Source: Nitrospinota bacterium
GTDB lineage: Bacteria > Nitrospinota_A > UBA7883 > JACRLM01
Assembly: GCA_016235255.1 (NCBI GenBank)
Contig: JACRLM010000031.1
Span: 43,763-107,762, forward strand
Length of the DNA: 64,000 nucleotides
Direction of reading: 5' to 3'
Part shown: one piece after another, positions 664-63,962 of the stretch
Position numbering within the stretch: position 1 is the first letter of the stretch
Layout: every line of letters starts with the position of its first letter
Position numbers and translations under genes: made by a program
Notes under the pieces: generated by a model
What the model saw: only the letters and a program-made list of their open reading frames with translations
What the model was told of the DNA's origin: nothing
Database searches by the model: none

Positions 664-1671
664 ATGTTTCGCAGGGCGGTAGCAGGATTGGCGCTTGCCG
701 GGTTGATGATGATAGCTGGCTGCAGCGGGGTGGGCGGGGAGAATGACACTTCCACTTCGGGCTCCTCTTCTACCGGATCGGGCTCCACCAAGGACCTGAG
801 CAAGATAGGGCAGACCCCCGACCTGACCTGGCACAACGATTATATGACCGGCTCCCACGCAAACTATTCGTGCGGGATCACCTGCCACCCCACGGACACG
901 GCGCTCACAAAAACTTCGGCGCGGACCTCCGGCCAAACCAAACCGGGGATGGCGCTCACCTCCACCCGGTCGGAAATCTGCTCCCAGTGCCATATGAGCA
1001 ATTACAACGCCGCGTCCAACTTCAAACATTCCCAGAATAACGTGGGCACATACTGCAACTCGTGCCACTATTCGGACAGCTTCACCTCCCATTCGCGCGT
1101 GAGCCACACGGAATTCCACTCCGTCATCACCACGAACTGCGAAAGCTGCCACTCGAACAGGTATCCTTCATCGCACTCGTCCTCTGGCAGGACCTCTGGC
1201 TGCGCCTCGTGCCACCAGTATTCCAGCGGCTCGTGGGGTCTCTCGTCCGGCGGCGCGCACACTTATACCAGTGGCTGCTCCTCTTGCCACAGCCCGACCA
1301 CGAACCATTCCGGCAGGTCCTCAAGCTGCGAAACGTGCCACACATACCCGACATGGACGGTGGCGCATACTTATACCTCCGGCTGTTCCTCTTGCCACAG
1401 CCCGACAACAGACCATTCCGGCAGGTCCAGCAGTTGCGAAACGTGCCACACATACCCGACATGGGCATGGTCGCACCCGGACGTAACTTCCGGATGCTCC
1501 TCGTGCCATAGCGGCCACTACAGCCCCTACTCCTGCGAGGGGTGCCACACGAGGGGCTTAAGCTGGGACTTCAGCCACAACTCGGTGAGTTCCTCCAACT
1601 GTATCGCCTGCCACGCCGACGGGTATGGAGATGACGGCGGCGAGGGCGGCCACGGCGGCGGCGACAACTAA
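664..1671 (+). CDS. Secreted multiheme c-type cytochrome lipoprotein (~12 heme-binding motifs), Ser/Thr/His-rich
   Basis: Lipoprotein signal MFRRAVAGLALAGLMMIAGC with lipobox IAGC. There are 11 CXXCH motifs (CSQCH, CNSCH, CESCH, CASCH, CSSCH x3, CETCH x2, CEGCH, CIACH) plus one CX3CH (CGITCH) in ~335 aa. Many extra His residues could serve as distal ligands. A GGGGGTG RBS-like stretch lies 8 nt upstream of the ATG at 664. Confidence 0.6.
   Translation: MFRRAVAGLALAGLMMIAGCSGVGGENDTSTSGSSSTGSGSTKDLSKIGQTPDLTWHNDYMTGSHANYSCGITCHPTDTALTKTSARTSGQTKPGMALTSTRSEICSQCHMSNYNAASNFKHSQNNVGTYCNSCHYSDSFTSHSRVSHTEFHSVITTNCESCHSNRYPSSHSSSGRTSGCASCHQYSSGSWGLSSGGAHTYTSGCSSCHSPTTNHSGRSSSCETCHTYPTWTVAHTYTSGCSSCHSPTTDHSGRSSSCETCHTYPTWAWSHPDVTSGCSSCHSGHYSPYSCEGCHTRGLSWDFSHNSVSSSNCIACHADGYGDDGGEGGHGGGDN
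1255..1470 (+). repeat. Internal tandem duplication (2 x 108 bp, ~90% identical) inside the multiheme cytochrome gene
   Basis: Unit 1 at 1255-1362 and unit 2 at 1363-1470 each encode AHTYTSGCSSCHSPTT(N/D)HSGRSSSCETCHTYPTW, a two-heme module. Confidence 0.8.
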
Positions 1672-1842
1672 AAAGCGCTCCGGAAGGCTGTGCCCCAGAG
1701 AAATTTAATACCGTATTTGGTGGCGCCGGCCTGGCTTGCCCTTACCTCTTGCGGCGGGCCATCCGGGGTGGTTCGTGGGACCATGAGGCGGAAAGCCTTC
1801 GCATGACATTCCGGTGGGGTCTTCTGCCAGGACAGAAAGGAT

Positions 1843-3351
1843 ATGACAACGGATTCCGCTGCGCCATGTGACACGGGCCGTGACCGCATGGCGGATTACC
1901 CCGTCCTTTTCATCGCCGGAACGCTCATAGCGCTGGCCCAGTACTTCCTTTTGCAGGAGGTCACCGCGCTTACCGCCGGCACCGAAATCGTGATACTGCT
2001 CGTCACGGTGGCTTACTTTTCAGGATTTTCCATCGGATACACTCTTTCCGGACGGATCTCCGAACCGGCCATAATAAAACTGATCGCGCTTTTTTTTCTT
2101 TTGCACCTTACGTTCCCGTTTTCATTACGGCTCCTGGCCGGGGCGCTGCATGAAATGCTTCCCGGCCTTGCGGCGCTGGCGCTTTTGTTCGTCACGGCGT
2201 TTGCGATGGTCTCCGTTTTTTCGATCCTCCTCCCGGCGTACATAGACAGGCGCGGGCCGGCCTCGCTCCCGGCGCTGTACGCCACCGAGCTTTGCGGAAC
2301 CGCCTTCGGATTCGCCGTGATATTCGGCGTGGGGGCCGCCCAGGCTTACGCTGTGGCGGCGATTTACCATGTGGCGTTCGCGGCCCTGGTGGGCGCCGTG
2401 TTCTGGAACATGAAAGCGGCCTTGGCGGCGCTTGCATTGGCCGGTGTTTCCGTGTTCATGTCCTCTTCGATGGACCGGTGGTCGCTATCCTATTTCTATG
2501 AGCGCGCTTTCGGCGTCAAAGACGCCCAGACCCTCTACAGCGTGTACAGTCCATATCAGAAGGTGGACATTATCGAGGCAAAGTCCGGATCGCGAAGGCT
2601 GTACCTTAACGGGCTTTTGTTTTACGGCTCCGGCTCGCTGCGCCAGTTCAACCTGTACCTGACGAGGCTTCCGGTGGAGCTTGCCGCCCCGGCAAATACG
2701 CTTATCATAGGCTCGGGATCCATGGAGTCCGTCGCGTATGCGTCACAAAAATCGGCCAGCGTCACCACGGTGGAAATAGACGAGGCGGTGATAAAAGGGA
2801 GCCTGGCCTATTTCACAGATGTGAACATGGGCGGGAAAATACCCGGTTGGCGCTACGTGGTGGACGACGGCAAGCATTTCCTGGGATCGGGCGTGGAGAA
2901 ATATGACCTGATATCCGTGGACGTGCCTGCGCCTTTCACCATACAGACCGGGCTTGTATATTCGGAGGACTTCATGCGGCTTGCGCGCGGGAGGCTCTCG
3001 CCCAAAGGCGTTTTCTCAATTTCGTTGTGCGGCAGGATAGATGACGGAGGGATGATCGCCACGGCTGTGGCCGCCGCTGTGCTGAACACCTTTGACGGCG
3101 TGATAATCCACACTCCCGAAAAATCCCCATACAGTTTCGCGTTGGCCGGGCATAAACTCCCTTTCACAAAAGAGCAGGCCGCGCGATTGATCGGGCAGTA
3201 CGGCGGCGGGACCGTGAAAATAATGGACAAAGCCGAGGCGATGGCGGCGGTGGGGGGCGCAAAGCCGATCAGGTGGGACGATCCTAGCCTGCCGGTGAAG
3301 GCCAGCTTGCGGCGGACCGCGAAAAAATTCTTCCCCGCGGAGGGGAGATGA
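1843..3351 (+). CDS. Spermidine-synthase-like (polyamine aminopropyltransferase fold) protein fused to an N-terminal polytopic membrane domain
   Basis: The N-terminal ~200 aa are hydrophobic with multiple TM helices. The C-terminal half (YQKVDIIEAKSGSRRLYLNG...LIIGSGSMESVAYA...VTTVEIDEAVI...DLISVDVPAP) matches the SpeE-like Rossmann methyltransferase/aminopropyltransferase fold. AAAGGA lies upstream of the ATG at 1843. An alternative start is at 1888. Confidence 0.5.
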   Translation: MTTDSAAPCDTGRDRMADYPVLFIAGTLIALAQYFLLQEVTALTAGTEIVILLVTVAYFSGFSIGYTLSGRISEPAIIKLIALFFLLHLTFPFSLRLLAGALHEMLPGLAALALLFVTAFAMVSVFSILLPAYIDRRGPASLPALYATELCGTAFGFAVIFGVGAAQAYAVAAIYHVAFAALVGAVFWNMKAALAALALAGVSVFMSSSMDRWSLSYFYERAFGVKDAQTLYSVYSPYQKVDIIEAKSGSRRLYLNGLLFYGSGSLRQFNLYLTRLPVELAAPANTLIIGSGSMESVAYASQKSASVTTVEIDEAVIKGSLAYFTDVNMGGKIPGWRYVVDDGKHFLGSGVEKYDLISVDVPAPFTIQTGLVYSEDFMRLARGRLSPKGVFSISLCGRIDDGGMIATAVAAAVLNTFDGVIIHTPEKSPYSFALAGHKLPFTKEQAARLIGQYGGGTVKIMDKAEAMAAVGGAKPIRWDDPSLPVKASLRRTAKKFFPAEGR

Positions 3352-3887
3352 ACGGATCAGCGGGGCTAAAGACTTTATACGTGTTCATGATGGGGTTTTT
3401 TCTCGCCCTCACGCAGACCGGCTTTTTTTTCGGAATGGAGATATTTTTCACCTCCGCTTTCGCCGGATTCGGCGCTGTGGCCGGCGGCTGGCTTCTGGGA
3501 AGCGCGGCGGGGCTTTTCATCGCAAAAGCGCGAATATGGGGGAGCGGCGCCGTCCGCGCGCAGATTGCCCACATAGCCTTGTGCCTTGCCGCGTACTACG
3601 CCTTGCAATGGGGATTGCGGACGGCTCCTTTCGACACGGCGCTGGCGCCTGTGTACATAGTCCTCATCGCCGTCTCAGGATCGCAGGCCGGAGCTTTCTT
3701 TGCCCGGAGCGGCGGGATTTTCCCCACAGCCTCGCGGCTTTATCTGTGGGAGAACAACGGGTTCATCGCCGGGTGGGTGGCCGGATTCGCAGGGTACGTT
3801 TTCATGGGGAGCGGATTTACATTATGGGCGCCAGCATTGGCCGCCGCGCTCACGGCCTCGTTGGGAAACAGGGCGCACAAGGCCTGA
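3348..3887 (+). CDS. Hypothetical polytopic membrane protein, translationally coupled (ATGA overlap) to the SpeE-like gene
   Basis: The start overlaps the upstream stop at 3348-3351. The product has 5-6 predicted TM helices rich in G/A/F and no recognisable family motif. Confidence 0.45.
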   Translation: MNGSAGLKTLYVFMMGFFLALTQTGFFFGMEIFFTSAFAGFGAVAGGWLLGSAAGLFIAKARIWGSGAVRAQIAHIALCLAAYYALQWGLRTAPFDTALAPVYIVLIAVSGSQAGAFFARSGGIFPTASRLYLWENNGFIAGWVAGFAGYVFMGSGFTLWAPALAAALTASLGNRAHKA

Positions 3888-4089
3888 TCCCCTTGCGCCA
3901 TCCGGGAAGCCGCCACCAGTGCGGTCACAATCAGGCCTGCTTTCAGCTCTTTCAGTACGTTCCCTGCGCTCAGTTCGTTCAGATGCGGCTTTTCATTCTG
4001 TCCGCCTTCCAATCTGCGGGCCATACGGGTATATTCAGCTTGTGAAAGGCGGATAGCCTCCGCCGCCTTATGAATGGAAGGATGCTGAC

Positions 4090-35840: not shown

Positions 35841-36195
35841 TGCTTCCCCGTAACCGTTTCTATTAACGCTTCCCCGTGGTCGCCTCTTAATGCTTCCCCG
35901 TGGTCGCCTCTTAATGCTTCCCCGTGGTCGCTGACCACGGATTCCTAAAGCGGGGAACCGGGGACTTCGTGGGAGCGCGGGCATCTTGCCCGCACTAATT
36001 AGACGGGGCCTAAACGGCTCCGTCTAATTACAGCAGCGCTTTTTGCAAGTCCAAGACGCCTTCGAGGCTCCTTGGACTTGTTGCGGGCAAGATGCCCGCG
36101 CTCCCAGGGGGGAACGAATCGCTGTCCGGGGTGTTCTTCACCCCGGACTCATCATGCCGCCGTATACGATGGCGGGGTGAAGAACATCCCGGCGA
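35841..36195. repeat. Composite palindromic intergenic repeat element, copy A (tandem 26-bp direct repeats plus nested hairpins enclosed by a 23-bp inverted repeat)
   Basis: Direct repeats CGCTTCCCCGTGGTCGCCTCTTAATG x2.5 (35867-35940). Hairpins GTGGTC-g-CTGACCAC, TAATTAGACGG..CCGTCTAATTA, CAAGTCCAAG..CTTGGACTTG, CGGGGTG..CACCCCG. Outer inverted repeat GGGAGCGCGGGCATCTTGCCCGC (35961-35983) / GCGGGCAAGATGCCCGCGCTCCC (36083-36105). A ~95-nt core is near-identical to 58690-58790. Confidence 0.55.
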
Positions 36196-36316
36196 GCAGT
36201 AAAAAGTCAAAAGTAAACGGCCTGACCCCTTTCTTACTTTCAAAAAAGGTCAAGCTCCCCCGCCCCACCGCCGATAAGTTCTCCATGAAGACTTATCGGG
36301 CGAGGAGTGCGGTCGA

Positions 36317-36592
36317 ATGCCTTCGTTGAGCGTGCCTAAGGCCACGGGCAATAAAATGTCGTCGTCCATCAGGCCGACGGGGAAGAACATATCCATGCCC
36401 CCAGCGGCCAAAAATCCGGGGCAGCTTCTGGACTGGTCCGGCAAACTGTCCAATGTGCCGATGAAAGGAAGCGGAGCTCCATATAAGAACGTCAACAACC
36501 AGACGTCGGACGCGCAGACCTCGCGCCTGCGGCAGAGCGGCCAGGAAGCGGTACAAGGCGGAAAGGGTGAGAGAATCGGCATTAAAGTGTAG
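36317..36592 (+). CDS. Possible small polar/disordered protein (91 aa), low confidence
   Basis: High GC3 in frame (~70%) but no hydrophobic core or motif. It lies between the repeat element and the DUF72 gene. Confidence 0.2.
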   Translation: MPSLSVPKATGNKMSSSIRPTGKNISMPPAAKNPGQLLDWSGKLSNVPMKGSGAPYKNVNNQTSDAQTSRLRQSGQEAVQGGKGERIGIKV

Positions 36593-36667
36593 GCGCCCTC
36601 CAAAAAATATCGCACCACCCCCTCCCCTCCTGTTAATCTATTTCAATTTGACGTTGGGCGTGGAACC

Positions 36668-54640: not shown

Positions 54641-56818
54641 CTAATTCTCATCCGCGTGTTTGGCGCTTTTAAGCCCCGCTTCCGCCGCCGGATCCGGCCG
54701 GGCGGAAGGGGCGTATATACGCCGGTATAGGACCATGTTGCGCATCACTTTTTTCACATACTCCCTAGTCTCAAGATATGGTATCAATTCCACGAACTCG
54801 TCGTCGTCATGATTTCCAAACCGCGCGTCCCACCTGTCCACGGCGGGGGCTCCGGCGTTATACGCCGCGATGGCGCGGGGGAGGTTGCCCTTGTAACGGG
54901 CCACAAGCTCCTGGAAATATGCCGCGCCGAGGGTCACGTTCGTCTCCGGGTCGAATAACGACAAAGGATCAAACTTCACGGCGGGCTCACGCCCGGAGCC
55001 TGTTTTCTCGAAAATCACCTTGCCTGTGGAGGGTATCAGCTGCATCAGCCCCCGCGCGTTGGCCGGCGACAGCGCGCCGGGATTGAAAGCCGACTCCTGC
55101 TTTATTATCGCAAGGGTCATAAACGGGCTGATCCCACGGCTGGCCGAGGCGCCGCGTATGATCTCCCAATGGCTCACCGGATACACGGCCCGCCAGTATG
55201 GGTCGGTGTAATCCGCCGCGCGCTCGGCGAATATGGGCGAAGTGAGCAGGCGGATGGACTGGTCCGCCGCCCCCGCCCTCCGGTATAACGAAGCAAGCCA
55301 CAAGGTCTCCTCCGATCCACCGCCTGTAAGCCCGCCTATGGCGCCAGCCTCCATCCTCGCCCCTTCCATGTGGCCGATCTGGGCCAGCATTTCAAACCGC
55401 TGATAGCGCCGCAGCGCCTCCTCGGCAAGATGCGCGGGGGGAGCGGTAAAAGCGCCGGTAACCGGATCGATGTCCGCCATGTCCACAGCGCTTTCTCCAA
55501 TTCCTTCCGCCATTGTCCCGTAATATGTGCGCGGATGCTTGCGTGTCAGCGTCGCCATTAAAGCGCTGGCCGATTCGCCGTCCCCCGCACGGCTTTGCGC
55601 CCGGGCCGCCCAATACAGTAATTTCCCGTCATTATTGAATGAACCCGCCTTTTCGGCGGCGCGCTGGAAATACTTCGCCGCTTCCTTGAATTTCCCCTGC
55701 CGGTACTCTACCCATCCCAGCTTCCATCGAATTTCATCTTCCGCAGCGGGAGCAAGCCCCATTGCCAGCGCCCTTGAGTAATGCGATCTGGCGCCGGGGA
55801 AATCCCCCCGGGCCTCGGCGATCTTGCCCATAAGTATCCGCGCCTTTCCAGCCGCTTCGCACGTCGGCTCGGCCTTGATTAATTTAGACGCAGTCTCCAG
55901 CGCCTCGCCCCCCATGTCCAGGTTCCACTGGATAGACGCCATGTGATACATGGCCCATGCGGCGTGGCTGCTTTTCGGGAATTCGTCCAAAAGCCTTTGA
56001 TAGCGGTCAAGCGCCTTCTTGCGCTCACGCCCCTTGTTGTAAGCTTCGCCAAGTTTCAACAGGGCGCTCTCGCGCTGATGCGGCGGCGTGGCGGATTCGA
56101 TCACGCTCTCCAGCTCTTCGGCCGCCTCAGTATATTTGTACGCCGCCTTGAGTTTCTCCGCCCGTTCCATCCGCTGATTGATGGTGGTGATTTCCAGGTT
56201 TTCCCGCAGAGTCTCGTCCGCTCCGCTTTCGATGGAGTCTATCGCGGCCTTCGCCTTTGACGCCGCGCTGGAAGCCGGATATGAAAGATAGATGTCCATG
56301 AAAACGGCATGGGCTCCTGCGGCGTCTCCTTCTTTAAGCTTGAGCGTCCCTTCGATGAAAAGCCGCTCTGGGGCGAATTCGTTTGGAACATCCGCCGCGC
56401 CGATCAACTCCAGATATTCGCCGCACTTTTCCATCCCGGCGTCAGCGCAAGCGGCCCTGACCCGCAATTCGTTGGCCTTGGCCTGTAACGGGGTGTCCGG
56501 ATATCTTTCCAGCATGGTGTTCATGATGGACAAGGCTTCGGCGGGGCGCCTGTCTTCCATCTCCATGCGGGCCAGGTCATACGCCGCATAGTCACCAATG
56601 ATGAACGCGGCGGAACCGAGCTTTGCAAACTCCCGGCGAGCTTCGGAATATTTCCCTGCCTGCTTGAGTTTGCGGGCGCTTTGATACGCCATCGCATGGC
56701 CGCCGGAATCTTTTGACGTGGACTTGAAGGCCGCCGGGCGCTGATCCGGAGTTGTCCCGCACGACGCTAACGAAAGCGCGCTAATGAGCGACGCGGTGAC
56801 GAGCGAAATATTCCGCAA
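54641..56818 (-). CDS. Soluble lytic murein transglycosylase-like lipoprotein (superhelical TPR-like N-domain plus SLT domain)
   Basis: The C-terminal AIIKQESAFNPGALSPANARGLMQLIPSTG is the SLT catalytic motif (ES..GLMQ). Start inferred as TTG at 56818, giving MRNISLVTASLISALSLASC (lipobox LASC). The listed ATG at 56899 would overlap miaA by 119 nt. Confidence 0.75.
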   Translation of the reverse strand: MRNISLVTASLISALSLASCGTTPDQRPAAFKSTSKDSGGHAMAYQSARKLKQAGKYSEARREFAKLGSAAFIIGDYAAYDLARMEMEDRRPAEALSIMNTMLERYPDTPLQAKANELRVRAACADAGMEKCGEYLELIGAADVPNEFAPERLFIEGTLKLKEGDAAGAHAVFMDIYLSYPASSAASKAKAAIDSIESGADETLRENLEITTINQRMERAEKLKAAYKYTEAAEELESVIESATPPHQRESALLKLGEAYNKGRERKKALDRYQRLLDEFPKSSHAAWAMYHMASIQWNLDMGGEALETASKLIKAEPTCEAAGKARILMGKIAEARGDFPGARSHYSRALAMGLAPAAEDEIRWKLGWVEYRQGKFKEAAKYFQRAAEKAGSFNNDGKLLYWAARAQSRAGDGESASALMATLTRKHPRTYYGTMAEGIGESAVDMADIDPVTGAFTAPPAHLAEEALRRYQRFEMLAQIGHMEGARMEAGAIGGLTGGGSEETLWLASLYRRAGAADQSIRLLTSPIFAERAADYTDPYWRAVYPVSHWEIIRGASASRGISPFMTLAIIKQESAFNPGALSPANARGLMQLIPSTGKVIFEKTGSGREPAVKFDPLSLFDPETNVTLGAAYFQELVARYKGNLPRAIAAYNAGAPAVDRWDARFGNHDDDEFVELIPYLETREYVKKVMRNMVLYRRIYAPSARPDPAAEAGLKSAKHADEN

Positions 56819-57758
56819 CTTCCGTCCTTGCGAATATGGCGTCCGCCACGGCGCTTGCCGTGTCTGCCGCTCCGGCGGGTATGCAAATGGCGTTTTCAAC
56901 CTTCTTGAACCATGTTATCTGCCGCTTGGCGAAATTCCTGGTTTCCTTCTTTATCGTCTCCGCCGATTGGGCGGCGGGAATGGCGCCTTCAATCTCCCGC
57001 AGCAACGTCTTGTAGCCCAAAGCCCTCATCGGCTTTGTTTTTTCATTATAACCTTTTTCCTTCAGCCTTTTAACCTCTTCGCGCCATCCTTCTTCCATCA
57101 TCTCGTCCACCCTTTTCCCGATCCGGTCATATAAGACCTTGCGATCCGGGCTTATCACGATCACCAGCGCGTCCCACTCAGGCCGGTTCGGATTCCGGGC
57201 GTATATGCCGCTCATGGTCTTTCCGGTGGCAAGGAACACCCCCAGGCATCGCCGGATGCGGAAATTGTCGTTCGGATGGATTTTCGCCATCCACACCGGG
57301 TCGGCCTCAACGGCCCGTTTGTATAGCCCCGCAAGCCCCTCGGCCGCCTCGATGGCGTCCATGCAAAGCTCCGTCCTCTCGTCCGCCCGCACGCCGCAAT
57401 GCAATCCTTCGGTCAACGCCTTGATGTACAGCCCAGTGCCGCCCACCACCAGTGGGATTTTGACGCGTCTCCACATATCCCGCGCGATGGCCTCCGCCTG
57501 TTCCCGGAACATCCCCACCGTGTAGTTTTCGTCCGGCCCGGCCACGCTTACCAGATGGTGTTTCACCCGCGCCAATTGCCGCGCGGTGGGCTTGGCGGAG
57601 CCGATGTCGAAATGTTTATATACCTGCACCGAGTCGGCGGAGATTATTTCTGTTCCAAGCCTTTCGGCCACGATGACGCCGGTCTCTGTCTTGCCGCAGG
57701 CCGTCGGCCCGGCGATCACCAGCAGCGGCGGCGGAGCGTCCGGGTTATCTGGACACAT
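56781..57758 (-). CDS. miaA: tRNA dimethylallyltransferase
   Basis: LLVIAGPTACGKTETGV..ISADSVQVYKHFDIGSAKP. Confidence 0.9.
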   Translation of the reverse strand: MCPDNPDAPPPLLVIAGPTACGKTETGVIVAERLGTEIISADSVQVYKHFDIGSAKPTARQLARVKHHLVSVAGPDENYTVGMFREQAEAIARDMWRRVKIPLVVGGTGLYIKALTEGLHCGVRADERTELCMDAIEAAEGLAGLYKRAVEADPVWMAKIHPNDNFRIRRCLGVFLATGKTMSGIYARNPNRPEWDALVIVISPDRKVLYDRIGKRVDEMMEEGWREEVKRLKEKGYNEKTKPMRALGYKTLLREIEGAIPAAQSAETIKKETRNFAKRQITWFKKVENAICIPAGAADTASAVADAIFARTEVAEYFARHRVAH

Positions 57759-58458
57759 ATCTGGCGATTATCCTGTTGAATTCGTCCGAGTCCGCCCCGT
57801 CGCCTTTTTTAAGCACAAGCGCGGATTGCTCTTCCGCATTTCCTTTATGACCGAGCCTCGCTTCCGAAAGGAAAAGGATCGGGGGCGATCCTGTGAAGGA
57901 TTTTACGTCACGCACCCTTGTTTCGCCAAAACCGTGCCGCGCAAGGATCGCACAGTATTCATCGCGCCGCTCATGGATCATCGTTATCCAAAGCGCCCCC
58001 CCCTCTTTTAAAACATGCGAGGCCGATTTCACAAGCCCGTCCAGGGTCATCATTATCTCGTGCCGCGCCGCCGCCTTGGCCGGATCGGGATTGAGCCTGC
58101 CGGAGCCTTTGCGCCGGTATGGAGGATTGGAGACAACAGCATCGAACGTCCCTTTTGAAAACAGTTTTGGCGATTCCATCATGTCCCCCGTCACAACATG
58201 ATAGTTTTCAAGCCCGTTGTTGCGCGCGTTCTCTTCCGCCAGCCGAGCAAGCTCCGGGTTTATCTCCAGCGCCGTTATTTTTATCCTCGGATTTTCGATG
58301 CCGATCAATATGGACACCACCCCCACCCCCGCTCCCATGTCCAGAAGCGCCCCCGCTCCCGCCGGACGGAAAAAATCGGCCAGAGCGAACGAATCGCGGT
58401 TGTACCTGTAGCCAGTCTCGCGCTGGTTGAGGCTTAATGTTTTATATGAATGGGCCAT
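57745..58458 (-). CDS. Class I SAM-dependent N6-adenine methyltransferase, tRNA (adenine37-N6)-methyltransferase-like (YfiC/TrmN6)
   Basis: LDMGAGVGVVSI (motif I) and DAVVSNPPY (the NPPY N6-amino methyltransferase motif). The product is 237 aa. Confidence 0.6.
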   Translation of the reverse strand: MAHSYKTLSLNQRETGYRYNRDSFALADFFRPAGAGALLDMGAGVGVVSILIGIENPRIKITALEINPELARLAEENARNNGLENYHVVTGDMMESPKLFSKGTFDAVVSNPPYRRKGSGRLNPDPAKAAARHEIMMTLDGLVKSASHVLKEGGALWITMIHERRDEYCAILARHGFGETRVRDVKSFTGSPPILFLSEARLGHKGNAEEQSALVLKKGDGADSDEFNRIIARYVSR

Positions 58459-58662
58459 GGGGAGTGGGATATCGTTCTATTTTTTCAATAATATCATATC
58501 TCAACTGACGGGGGTCTTCTTGATCCGGCTATCTTCGCGACGCCGGTATAGTGCCTGCAATTGCCACCGTCAAAGGTGGCGCTGCAACGGAACCCAGGGA
58601 GCGCGGGGTGGCACGGCCACGGCGGAATTCCCGCATCACATAAATGGAACCTCAAAGACTCC

Positions 58663-58940
58663 ATAACGTTTCCCCGTGGCCGCCTCCATTAACGCTTCCC
58701 CGTGGTCGCTGACCACGGATTCCTAAAGCGAGGAACCGGGGACTTCGTGGAAGCGCGGGCATCTTGCCCGCACTAATTAGACGGAGCATCAAAGGCTCCA
58801 TAATGCTTCCCTGTGGTTACCTCTACTAACGCTTACCGCTGTCCGGGGTGTTGTAGCCCGCAAGGGCGGTCACCCCGGACTCTTTGTGCTCCGTTCAGGA
58901 AGGCGGGGTGACGCGCTTCGCGCTCAAACACCCCGCCGAG
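58663..58940. repeat. Composite palindromic intergenic repeat element, copy B (diverged)
   Basis: Shares the ~95-nt core ...TTAACGCTTCCCCGTGGTCGCTGACCACGGATTCCTAAAGCG(A)GGAACCGGGGACTTCGTGG(A)AGCGCGGGCATCTTGCCCGCACTAATTAGACGG... and the CGGGGTG..CACCCCG hairpin with copy A. It lacks the 3' partner of the long inverted repeat and has an 18-nt insertion in one hairpin loop. Confidence 0.55.
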
Positions 58941-58993
58941 CGGCAGAAGGCTGGCCGATGGCGATTAAAGGAGGGGATATAACTACTATGCGC

Positions 58994-60205
58994 TCACCAC
59001 CCGAATTCAAGCTTCGGGGCTCCGTATTTCACCATCGCCATGTAATATCTCTCGAACGCGTGTTTCATCCAGTGGTACACGCGCCCTCTGTCGTGGCGCA
59101 GCTTGTTGCGGGGCGGCAGAAGGGGCGAAGCGGAAATATAAAATGCTGTGTCCCCCGCGTCGGCTATGCAGATCACCGAAAAGTCCTTCCCCCGTTTTTT
59201 GGCCCCACCCCGGATGTCCGCCACGATGTTATGGGCGGCCGCTTCCGCCATGGCGCCGGTCATCTGCCCGGTCTTGGGAACGCCGACCGCCACTGGCGTC
59301 TCGGCTGGAGGCGGTATGGCAAGGGTCACCCCCACCGCATAAACGTTCTGGTATTTAGGGTTCGCAAGATAATCGTCACCAATTATGAATCCGCGCGGAT
59401 TTGAAAATCCTTCAATCCCCATATATGCATGGCTGCCGAAAAACGCGGGGACGATCAGAGAAAAATCGCTTTTCCATTTATCACCGTCGCCAAACTCCAC
59501 CCCGTCCGGCAACACTTGCGTCAACTTCGCGTTTGTTTTCCACGCGATCCCACGGTCGGCGAACTCGTCTTCCATCATCCGGCCCATGGCGCCAAAACCG
59601 CCAACGCCAAAATGACCGAGGAAAGGCTCGTTTGTGAAAAGTGATATCTTGAACTTGGGGCGGATTTTAAGGCCCCGCAACTTGGTGTCCATCATCATGG
59701 CCAGTTCGTACACCGGGCCAAGGCAGGAGGCCCCCGGCGCGTTGCCCAGCACTATATGGCCACTCCCCCGTTCGATCAGCGCGTCGAGCGCGCTTTTGGT
59801 CTGCATCGCCTGATGAACGTTGAAAATGGAATAACTGTTCCCCCCTTCCGGCCCCATTCCCGGTATGGCGGAAAAATCAAGCTCCGACCCTGTGGCGGCC
59901 ACAAGGTAGTCATAATCGTATTCGCCCGCGGAGCCCCGGACGCGGCATTTGTCCGGCTCGGCCTTCACTATAGTGTCATGGATGAATTTGATCCCAAGCT
60001 TTCCCAACCGCACGGCCACGTCCGCCTGTATGTCTTCCGGATTTTTCCATCCCATCGCCACCCATGGGAGCGACGGGACGAATGTGAACATTTTTTCGGA
60101 GGAGACCACCGTCACATCATCGGTGGGGCCAAGGGAATACCGCAGCGCAACCGCCGCGTTGAACCCGCCGAAAGACGAACCTGAAACGACGATCCTTTTG
60201 CCCAT
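58994..60205 (-). CDS. FAD-dependent pyridine nucleotide-disulfide oxidoreductase, sulfide:quinone oxidoreductase (SQR)-like
   Basis: RIVVSGSSFGGFNAA is the N-terminal FAD-binding motif. The 403-aa length and Cys positions (GASCLGPVYE ~160; VICIADAGD ~340) resemble SQR/flavocytochrome-c family proteins. Confidence 0.5.
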   Translation of the reverse strand: MGKRIVVSGSSFGGFNAAVALRYSLGPTDDVTVVSSEKMFTFVPSLPWVAMGWKNPEDIQADVAVRLGKLGIKFIHDTIVKAEPDKCRVRGSAGEYDYDYLVAATGSELDFSAIPGMGPEGGNSYSIFNVHQAMQTKSALDALIERGSGHIVLGNAPGASCLGPVYELAMMMDTKLRGLKIRPKFKISLFTNEPFLGHFGVGGFGAMGRMMEDEFADRGIAWKTNAKLTQVLPDGVEFGDGDKWKSDFSLIVPAFFGSHAYMGIEGFSNPRGFIIGDDYLANPKYQNVYAVGVTLAIPPPAETPVAVGVPKTGQMTGAMAEAAAHNIVADIRGGAKKRGKDFSVICIADAGDTAFYISASPLLPPRNKLRHDRGRVYHWMKHAFERYYMAMVKYGAPKLEFGW

Positions 60206-63701: not shown

Positions 63702-63962
63702 TCAGACCAATCCCGTGAGCATGTGCGTCCCGTCGCAGAAAGGCGGCTTTGTCGTCTTCTTGCATCCGCATAGGGCGGCGTGCCTGTCCTTTTCGATTTC
63801 AAAAACCATCGGGACGTTTTTCATCCCTTCATACTCCGTCCCCTTGTGCGACCCGTCGCAGAAAGGCTGCTTTCTGGAAAGCCCGCACCCGCACCATGCG
63901 TAACTTCCAGCCTTAAGCTCCACGATGTAAGGAGCGTTCTTCGGCGATTTGGGATCAGGCAT
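63702..63962 (-). CDS. CDGSH-type iron-sulfur domain protein (mitoNEET-like), two CDGSH motifs
   Basis: CGCGLSRKQPFCDGSH and CGCKKTTKPPFCDGTH. Confidence 0.75.
   Translation of the reverse strand: MPDPKSPKNAPYIVELKAGSYAWCGCGLSRKQPFCDGSHKGTEYEGMKNVPMVFEIEKDRHAALCGCKKTTKPPFCDGTHMLTGLV

Follow-up and report, generated by a model that had tools for sequence, protein, structure and literature searches.

REP/REPIN-RAYT systems are reportedly known from Enterobacteria and Pseudomonas, through the work of Nunvar in 2010 and of Ton-Hoang in 2012. The same systems are treated by Bertels & Rainey 2011 (PMC3116915), Messing 2012 (PMC3479197) and Bertels 2017 (PMC5581495), and the biochemistry of E. coli TnpArep is published (PMC3479197, and Ton-Hoang 2012 as cited in PMC5581495). 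In these systems, imperfect palindromes of 25–30 nt (REPs) with a conserved unpaired tag occur in many dispersed, mostly extragenic copies, and convergent units pair up at conserved distances. The gene of a small HUH/Y1 transposase (RAYT) lies between inverted copies of the matching hairpin, and several REP families are possible in one genome, each with its own RAYT. GTAG and CGTC tags define two published REP superfamilies, not REPs in general (PMC3733652).

The locus analysed here, copy B, covers about 280 bases (58659–58941) of a 64-kb stretch of Nitrospinota DNA, hereafter the window, and is very probably a BIME-like mosaic, now decayed, in which REPs of two or more families are combined. 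These families, among them R1 and R2, are dispersed in Nitrospinota genomes and presumably mobilised by RAYTs. At family level, the Nitrospinota repeats share with REP/REPIN-RAYT systems the features described above, but the tag is GCTTC (R1) or GCTS (R2) instead of GTAG, the host phylum is Nitrospinota, half-REP tandem arrays precede some units, and the system is known here from sequence alone. As in E. coli BIMEs, the copies are intergenic mosaics in which REPs of differing type and orientation are joined by short conserved linkers, their module number varies between copies, and there is tandem amplification inside the cluster. In E. coli BIMEs, however, the alternating palindromic units, Y and Z, belong to a single family, whereas two unrelated REP families and genome-specific hairpins are combined here, and it is a directly oriented half-REP that is amplified.

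A further likeness is to the TIRYT or 'TIRtron' families of Di Nocera et al. 2013 (PMC3733652), in which repeats without a GTAG tag border tyrosine transposase genes. Some TIRYT repeats are self-complementary, moderately abundant and arranged in dimers or clusters (PMC3733652), and R1 and R2 are similar. Within the right-hand R1 variant, CCGGGGTCAGGCGACCCCGG, the stretch GGGGTCAG agrees by eye with the TIRYT consensus GGGGWSAS, an agreement that does not imply membership. A point of difference is that the Nitrospinota proteins pass the NCBI RAYT model, and the likeness to TIRYTs is one of repeat description. A literature search for Nitrospina together with repetitive extragenic palindromes found no paper.

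Modular organization of copies A and B

Copy B lies in the gap between the stop codon of a flavoprotein gene and the start codon of a methyltransferase gene. The two flanking genes and the modules of copy B are as follows.

57745–58458, minus strand: MTS-domain methyltransferase gene (homologues named tRNA1(Val) A37-N6 methyltransferase), followed by miaA
58668–58693, plus strand: half-REP unit H1, tag and left arm only (GTTTCCCCGTGGCCGCC), then linker TCCATTAAC
58694–58718, plus strand: R1 REP hairpin with tag GCTTCC, stem CCGTGGTC (58700–58707), loop GCT and stem GACCACGG (58711–58718)
58719–58754, plus strand: REPIN-1 spacer ATTCCTAAAGCGAGGAA and internally deleted right-hand R1 arm CCGGGGAC..TTCGTGGAAGC, with the 3' tag GAAGC kept
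58755–58771, plus strand: R3 hairpin GCGGGCA-TCT-TGCCCGC, present twice, inverted, in copy A
58772–58804, plus strand: truncated hairpin ACTAATTAGACGGAGC-ATCAAA-GGCTCCATAAT, remnant of the centre of the long inverted repeat of copy A
58805–58837, plus strand: half-REP unit H2 (GCTTCCCTGTGGTTACC and TCTACTAAC) and the start of a third (GCTTACC)
58838–58880, plus strand: R2 REP hairpin, long-loop variant, GCTG-TCCGGGGTG-TT-[GTAGCCCGCAAGGGCGG]-TCACCCCGGA
58902–58941, minus strand: inverted R2 REP hairpin, long-loop variant, GCTC-GGCGGGGTG-TT-[TGAGCGCGAAGCGCG]-TCACCCCGCC
58994–60205, minus strand: Pyr_redox_2 flavoprotein gene with a DsrE neighbour

A related composite, copy A (35843–36199, plus strand), lies 22.8 kb away and consists of the following parts.

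35843–35916, plus strand: three half-units
35916–35940, plus strand: R1, then a decayed REPIN-1 arm, then R3 on the plus strand
35970–36018 and 36058–36106: arms (80% complementary) of a 49-nt inverted repeat, which contains R3 on the minus strand at 36083–36101
36119–36150, plus strand, and 36168–36199, minus strand: short-loop R2 doublet

Pairwise alignment reveals a 111-nt core common to both copies with 94% identity (58689–58799 in B, 35911–36021 in A), in agreement with the initial annotation, which had described B as a diverged second copy of the composite. The alignment to A and a repeat scan also bear out its statement that B retains the core and the CGGGGTG/CACCCCG hairpin; hairpins of this type lie at 58844–58877 and 58904–58935 in B and at 36127–36145 and 36173–36191 in A. 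The 3' half of the long inverted repeat is indeed gone from B, where the first arm alone remains (58748–58796). A middle part of about 75 nt (58725–58800) is found only in A and B, and partly in loci L012 and L112. Since only A and B share the whole of this genome-specific part, they are true paralogues that descend from one composite.

The right-hand R1 arm of REPIN-1 was assigned by pairwise alignment to the intact REPINs of L031, L125, L025 and L133, and the predicted fold of copy B pairs GCTTCC with GGAAGC. R3 has three matches against 0.11 expected; in L012 the hairpin GCGGGCG-TCC-CGCCCGC adjoins R1 and represents an A-T to G-C compensatory change relative to the R3 of the window. The H2 stretch (58805–58837) is a direct repeat of 58659–58703, and the GTGGTTACC variant of the half-unit is also present in L133. 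The two R2 units of B (58838–58880 and 58902–58941) form an intact heterodimer, REPIN-2. Both copies are thus mosaics of REP units and conserved non-REP linkers, with a module number that differs between A and B. The repeat structure of copy B is not a product of chance: 0–0.1 motif matches are expected in shuffles, and B folds far better than shuffled sequence, with a z-score of −5.8 for the plus strand and −4.9 for the minus strand.

Each R2 unit of B carries a mini-hairpin insert after GGGGTGTT. The first insert, GTAGCCCGCAAGGGCGGT at 58853–58870, lies within the loop of CCGGGGTG...CACCCCGG, where copy A reads CTT. The second, CGCGCTTCGCGCTCA at 58912–58926, occupies the equivalent loop position of the second hairpin and had been missed in the initial annotation. 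The GT(A/T)GCCCG.AAGG.CGG insert type recurs in L110, and the TGAGCGCGAAGCGCG insert in L081, L098 and L104, with a compensated G-C to T-A pair in L081; a short-loop R2 doublet like that of A recurs in L089. Because the loop inserts of B recur in unrelated contigs, they represent variants of a subfamily. The 18-nt loop insert first described for B is present, with its stem intact, but it is no insertion private to B.

R1 and R2 are dispersed hairpin families with covarying stems

The consensus of R1 is GCTTC-N-CCGTGGTC-GC(C)T-GACCACGG, and that of R2 is GCTS-NNCGGG-GTGTTCTTCAC-CCCGNN. A metagenome scan with the pattern CCCCGTGGTCGCN{0,3}TGACCACGG found R1 in at least 120 metagenome stretches, with several matches on single contigs; shuffled controls gave no matches. 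R1 is also present in three Nitrospinota MAGs. Two were found by a genome-collection scan, whose pattern was too strict in that it contained ATTCC, a motif found to be non-conserved, and the third is that of L133. In L011 the hairpin GCTTCCCCGTGGTCGCCTGACCACGG occurs once forward and twice inverted within 170 nt. The collected loci hold 259–279 full R1 units, the number varying with the loci included, and the count of the left variant is inflated by the choice of metagenome loci for an exact left-type R1. In the window's own genome the direct count is two clusters in 64 kb, plus assembly breaks on the repeat, and a copy number for that genome is extrapolated from the family.

R1 units form doublets. 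Adjacent pairs less than 400 nt apart are convergent in 74 of 91 cases (five of the 74 are one unit matched on both strands), with spacing modes of about 22, 60 and 94 nt. The left R1 arm is typically CCGTGG..CCACGG and the right arm CCGGGG..CCCCGG; because the two arms differ, the doublets are heterodimers. This organization matches that described for REP heterodimers and REPINs in PMC3733652 and PMC3116915. R1 is followed by R2 in L017, L105 and L117, and the two families occur together, in either order, in L012, L017, L025, L035, L105 and L117.

In an alignment of 50 distinct R1 units, 94.8% of the cells of the 8-bp stem are paired; one pair alternates between UA, GC and AU and another between UA and CG, and none of 500 shuffles reaches the observed score. 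R2 units, for whose collection just two anchors served (the 5' GCT tag and GTGTTCTTCAC, the core next to the loop), have a 9-bp stem with 91.7% of cells paired, in which both sides change in five of the nine pairs; again, 0 of 500 shuffles reach the score. The initial annotation had proposed a covariation analysis once more copies were collected. These further copies show compensatory changes in the stems of both R1 and R2, and not the lack of them that it had named as counter-evidence, and the hairpins are therefore real.

The R1 tag GCTTC is at least 90% conserved, and the R2 tag is GCT(C/G), with GCT invariant; neither family has a conserved GTAG or CGTC tag. Sequence outside the variable stem positions (tag GCTTC, stem, loop GTGTTCTTCAC) is highly conserved. 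The repeats are mainly extragenic: A and B are intergenic, and open frames of 150 codons or more contain 39% of the R1 units versus 83% of random 25-mers, about half the random frequency by a crude proxy that uses raw open frames in place of gene calls.

Further hairpin repeats adjoin R1 in L018, L026, L029, L115, L121 and other metagenome contigs, for example gtcatggtgagc..cgaaccatgac, cacccttcgacaggctcagggtgac and ttcgctatc.gccagaatgaca. Their position suggests further REP-like families in the same organisms.

Half-REP arrays

About 11% of the R1 units (30 of 279) are preceded by half-REP arrays. A half-REP consists of the tag, the left arm GCTTCCCCGTGGYCGCC and a linker of 8–10 nt, and is repeated with a period of 23–26 nt. 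Arrays hold one to six direct copies and always stand directly 5' of a full R1 hairpin. The linker is constant inside one array and differs between arrays. Examples are the following.

Window 35843–35916 (copy A): array
Window 58668–58693 and 58805–58837 (copy B): arrays
L020 22–203: array
L133 2396–2421 and 3640–3711: arrays

The 24-nt units might recall a CRISPR, a reading that was rejected on two grounds: spacers are lacking, and each array keeps one linker throughout. In the REP literature consulted, no counterpart of the half-REP arrays was found. Rather than debris of slippage, they could be the footprint of an undescribed strand-transfer or amplification mode of a non-GTAG RAYT clade, or a co-opted protein-binding array, although we regard this as a long shot. 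If it were true, composites like A and B would have a function and would not be mosaics in decay.

RAYT genes between inverted hairpins

A tblastn search with a RAYT consensus led to an open reading frame in L039, which was then tested against NCBIfam, Pfam and the PDB. It matches NCBIfam NF047646, 'REP-associated tyrosine transposase', with 85.4 bits (cutoff 80), and Pfam Y1_Tnp with a sub-threshold 20.5 bits. In the PDB its one hit is E. coli TnpArep (4ER8), from which it is distant (E = 0.0012 across 37 residues). The protein has 28 homologues, almost all from Nitrospinota where the source is named, and the 15 that were aligned all have the same HUH motif (MPNHxH) and YIHNNP tyrosine motif. 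The homologue clusters comprise one to five member sequences on one to three contigs each, which fits single-copy genes.

In six loci of other genomes the RAYT gene lies between inverted copies of R1 or R2 hairpins; in L141 one side is seen. Inverted R1 units stand within 4–40 nt of the gene on both sides in L039, L133 and L138/L139, those of L039 being 5 nt past the stop codon and 23 nt ahead of the start codon. P0004 (L133, GCA_016208975.1, a 2.2-Mb Nitrospinota contig) lies in a cluster of about 3 kb with at least 20 R1 units. Inverted R1 is found at the flanks of P0002 and directly after the stop codon of P0007 (L141 535–565). The members of a distant RAYT clade, P0009 and P0014 (L134 2950–3560 and L140 1455–2035, the latter from ENA metagenome assembly ERZ27275847), have inverted R2-type hairpins at their flanks, GGCGGGGTGTTCAC.. 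and GGCGAGGTGTTCTTCACCTCGCC. The MAG GCA_016207925.1 (L134, L141) holds both clades. R1 flanks one RAYT clade and R2 another, so that either REP family has a RAYT clade of its own. As a separate observation, the L133 cluster (860–4050) contains left and right R1 variants, including compensated CCGAGG..CCTCGG stems.

No RAYT gene is encoded in the 64-kb window, and the window's own MAG presumably contains one elsewhere. The RAYT P0006 (MBI5816061.1) probably comes from this MAG, judging only from the closeness of its accession number to that of the window's methyltransferase (MBI5814737.1), 1,324 apart.

Genomic context

The genes on either side of copy B had been given as a tRNA methyltransferase gene and an SQR-like operon. 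The MTS domain agrees with the former, while 'SQR-like' is a loose label: the flavoprotein scores 77 bits against the SQR type III model, whose cutoff is 525. In the nearest methyltransferase orthologues (54–61% protein identity; L135–L137) the order methyltransferase-miaA-SLT-amidohydrolase is kept. The upstream gap of these three relatives is just 73–101 nt, the upstream gene is a different one and there is no R1, so copy B is not conserved at the same position by orthologous genes; at 54–61% protein identity, however, the relatives are too distant to serve as empty sites. A search among the 140 collected loci found no clean pair of filled and empty sites.

Short-read (Logan) contigs of the same organism, found by exact-protein look-up of the flanking genes (L001, L003, L004, L005 and L006; runs SRR12113393, SRR12113394, SRR12113395 and SRR12113407), end on the repeat at 58718 and 35843, as is expected of multi-copy DNA.

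In a search of the window against Rfam 15 at the gathering score, the only match is a tRNA; at E ≤ 10, the best hits of A and B reach at most 17.7 bits (E ≥ 0.67) and none is relevant. Copy B contains no promoter-like or terminator-like site. A reading of its hairpins as terminators was dropped, as none of them is followed by a T-run on either strand. Copy A gave no blastn match in plasmid and phage collections, and a phage origin was rejected after scans of viral contigs with four patterns gave only chance or coding matches without tag or family context.

Several other features of the window were recorded. A 122-aa open reading frame beside copy A (36250–36618, minus strand) has no Pfam or NCBIfam match; its status as a real gene decides whether the setting of A is convergent or co-directional. 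Two tandem 108-nt copies with 85% identity occupy 1255–1470, and a 58-nt repeat with 123-nt spacing and 74% identity lies at 63713–63893. At its 3' end the TPR/SLT transglycosylase gene has an overlapping palindrome with 37-nt arms (54662–54723), which may be a terminator or another palindromic repeat.

Discussion

The interpretation of copy B as a decayed REP mosaic builds on what was directly observed, namely the repeat families, their doublets, the covariation, the association with RAYT genes in other genomes and the absence from orthologous sites. Mobilisation of the hairpins by RAYTs would follow from the family resemblance and, by analogy, from the published biochemistry of E. coli TnpArep, and the mode of cluster growth is one that we infer. 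A REP consists of a short conserved unpaired tag and an 8–9 bp hairpin, and convergent pairs of REPs make up REPINs. In the proposed scheme, which is modelled on the systems of E. coli and Pseudomonas, a single-copy domesticated HUH/Y1 transposase, the RAYT, would bind the folded hairpin on single-stranded DNA and cut beside the tag, and REPINs would be copied or moved into extragenic sites. New units may insert beside old ones, with the accumulation of mosaics as the result, and these mosaics would decay by deletion and local tandem duplication, which could yield the half-unit arrays. The stems would be kept, with compensatory changes, because the hairpin is the substrate of the transposase. 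Any effect on neighbours, such as 3'-end protection of the upstream flavoprotein mRNA, is conjectural and would be secondary.

Between copies A and B the stems are preserved while the loops differ, as the initial annotation had noted. Its conclusion that the pattern reflects selection on secondary structure instead of sequence cannot be upheld. The modules (R1, R2, the half-units and the third hairpin) have dispersed independently and occur at 120 or more other sites, where their combinations and orientations vary, the tag, stem and loop motifs are strongly conserved as sequence too, the hairpins flank RAYT genes, and the element is absent from the orthologous gap of three relatives. Stem preservation is what recognition by a hairpin-binding HUH transposase would bring about, and it is no pointer to a functional RNA.

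It is improbable that A and B are structured non-coding RNAs or cis-regulatory UTR elements under RNA-structure selection, with the repeat-like hairpins incidental. The predicted folds are very stable, and they are so on both strands; the equal folding of the two strands, which is expected of DNA palindromes, argues against an RNA, as does the occurrence of the modules at 120 or more unrelated sites in either orientation. Compensatory stem changes are compatible with an RNA element, and so is the position of B, which lies 3' of the first and 5' of the second of two genes on one strand. Many REPs are moreover transcribed and act as RNA hairpins, according to PMC3733652. Against it stand the lack of a relevant Rfam match and of any promoter-like or terminator-like site within B, its absence upstream of the orthologous methyltransferase in three relatives, and the presence of the hairpins of B at the flanks of transposase genes.

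Nor is it at all likely that B is a cluster of MITEs or of IS200/IS605-derived palindrome-associated elements, moved by a multi-copy IS and not by a RAYT. Convergent inverted units with conserved spacers do look like terminal inverted repeats, but the units are self-complementary hairpins and not plain inverted repeats. RAYTs are related to IS200 TnpA, in line with the weak Y1_Tnp match, yet the associated protein goes beyond Y1_Tnp and passes the RAYT equivalog model. No tnpB, IS or other transposase gene adjoins the units in loci with gene calls, and the small homologue clusters fit single-copy genes.

The notion that A and B form the template repeat and the variable repeat of a diversity-generating retroelement, or another paired functional repeat, is close to refuted and deserves next to no credence: the two cores differ by six substitutions, and B has adenine at five of them, but one of the six falls on a C, no credible coding region contains either copy, the copies are 22.8 kb apart, their modules occur at 100 or more other sites, and the adjacent open reading frames searched against Pfam include no reverse transcriptase.

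The REP mosaic therefore stands as the preferred interpretation, and what it represents is an ordinary kind of bacterial repeat, a REP/REPIN-RAYT system with BIME-like mosaics in places. The stable fold and the preserved stems are explained by membership of a REP/REPIN family and not by a new riboswitch-like RNA, which removes a false lead. REP clusters fragment short-read assemblies at predictable places, a point that matters for MAG quality, and the half-REP arrays constitute a small puzzle. Nitrospinota, a phylum known almost only from MAGs, now has two defined REP families, each matched by a RAYT clade, and the combination of non-GTAG tags with the pairing of one clade to each family provides a data point on the co-evolution of RAYTs and their hairpins.
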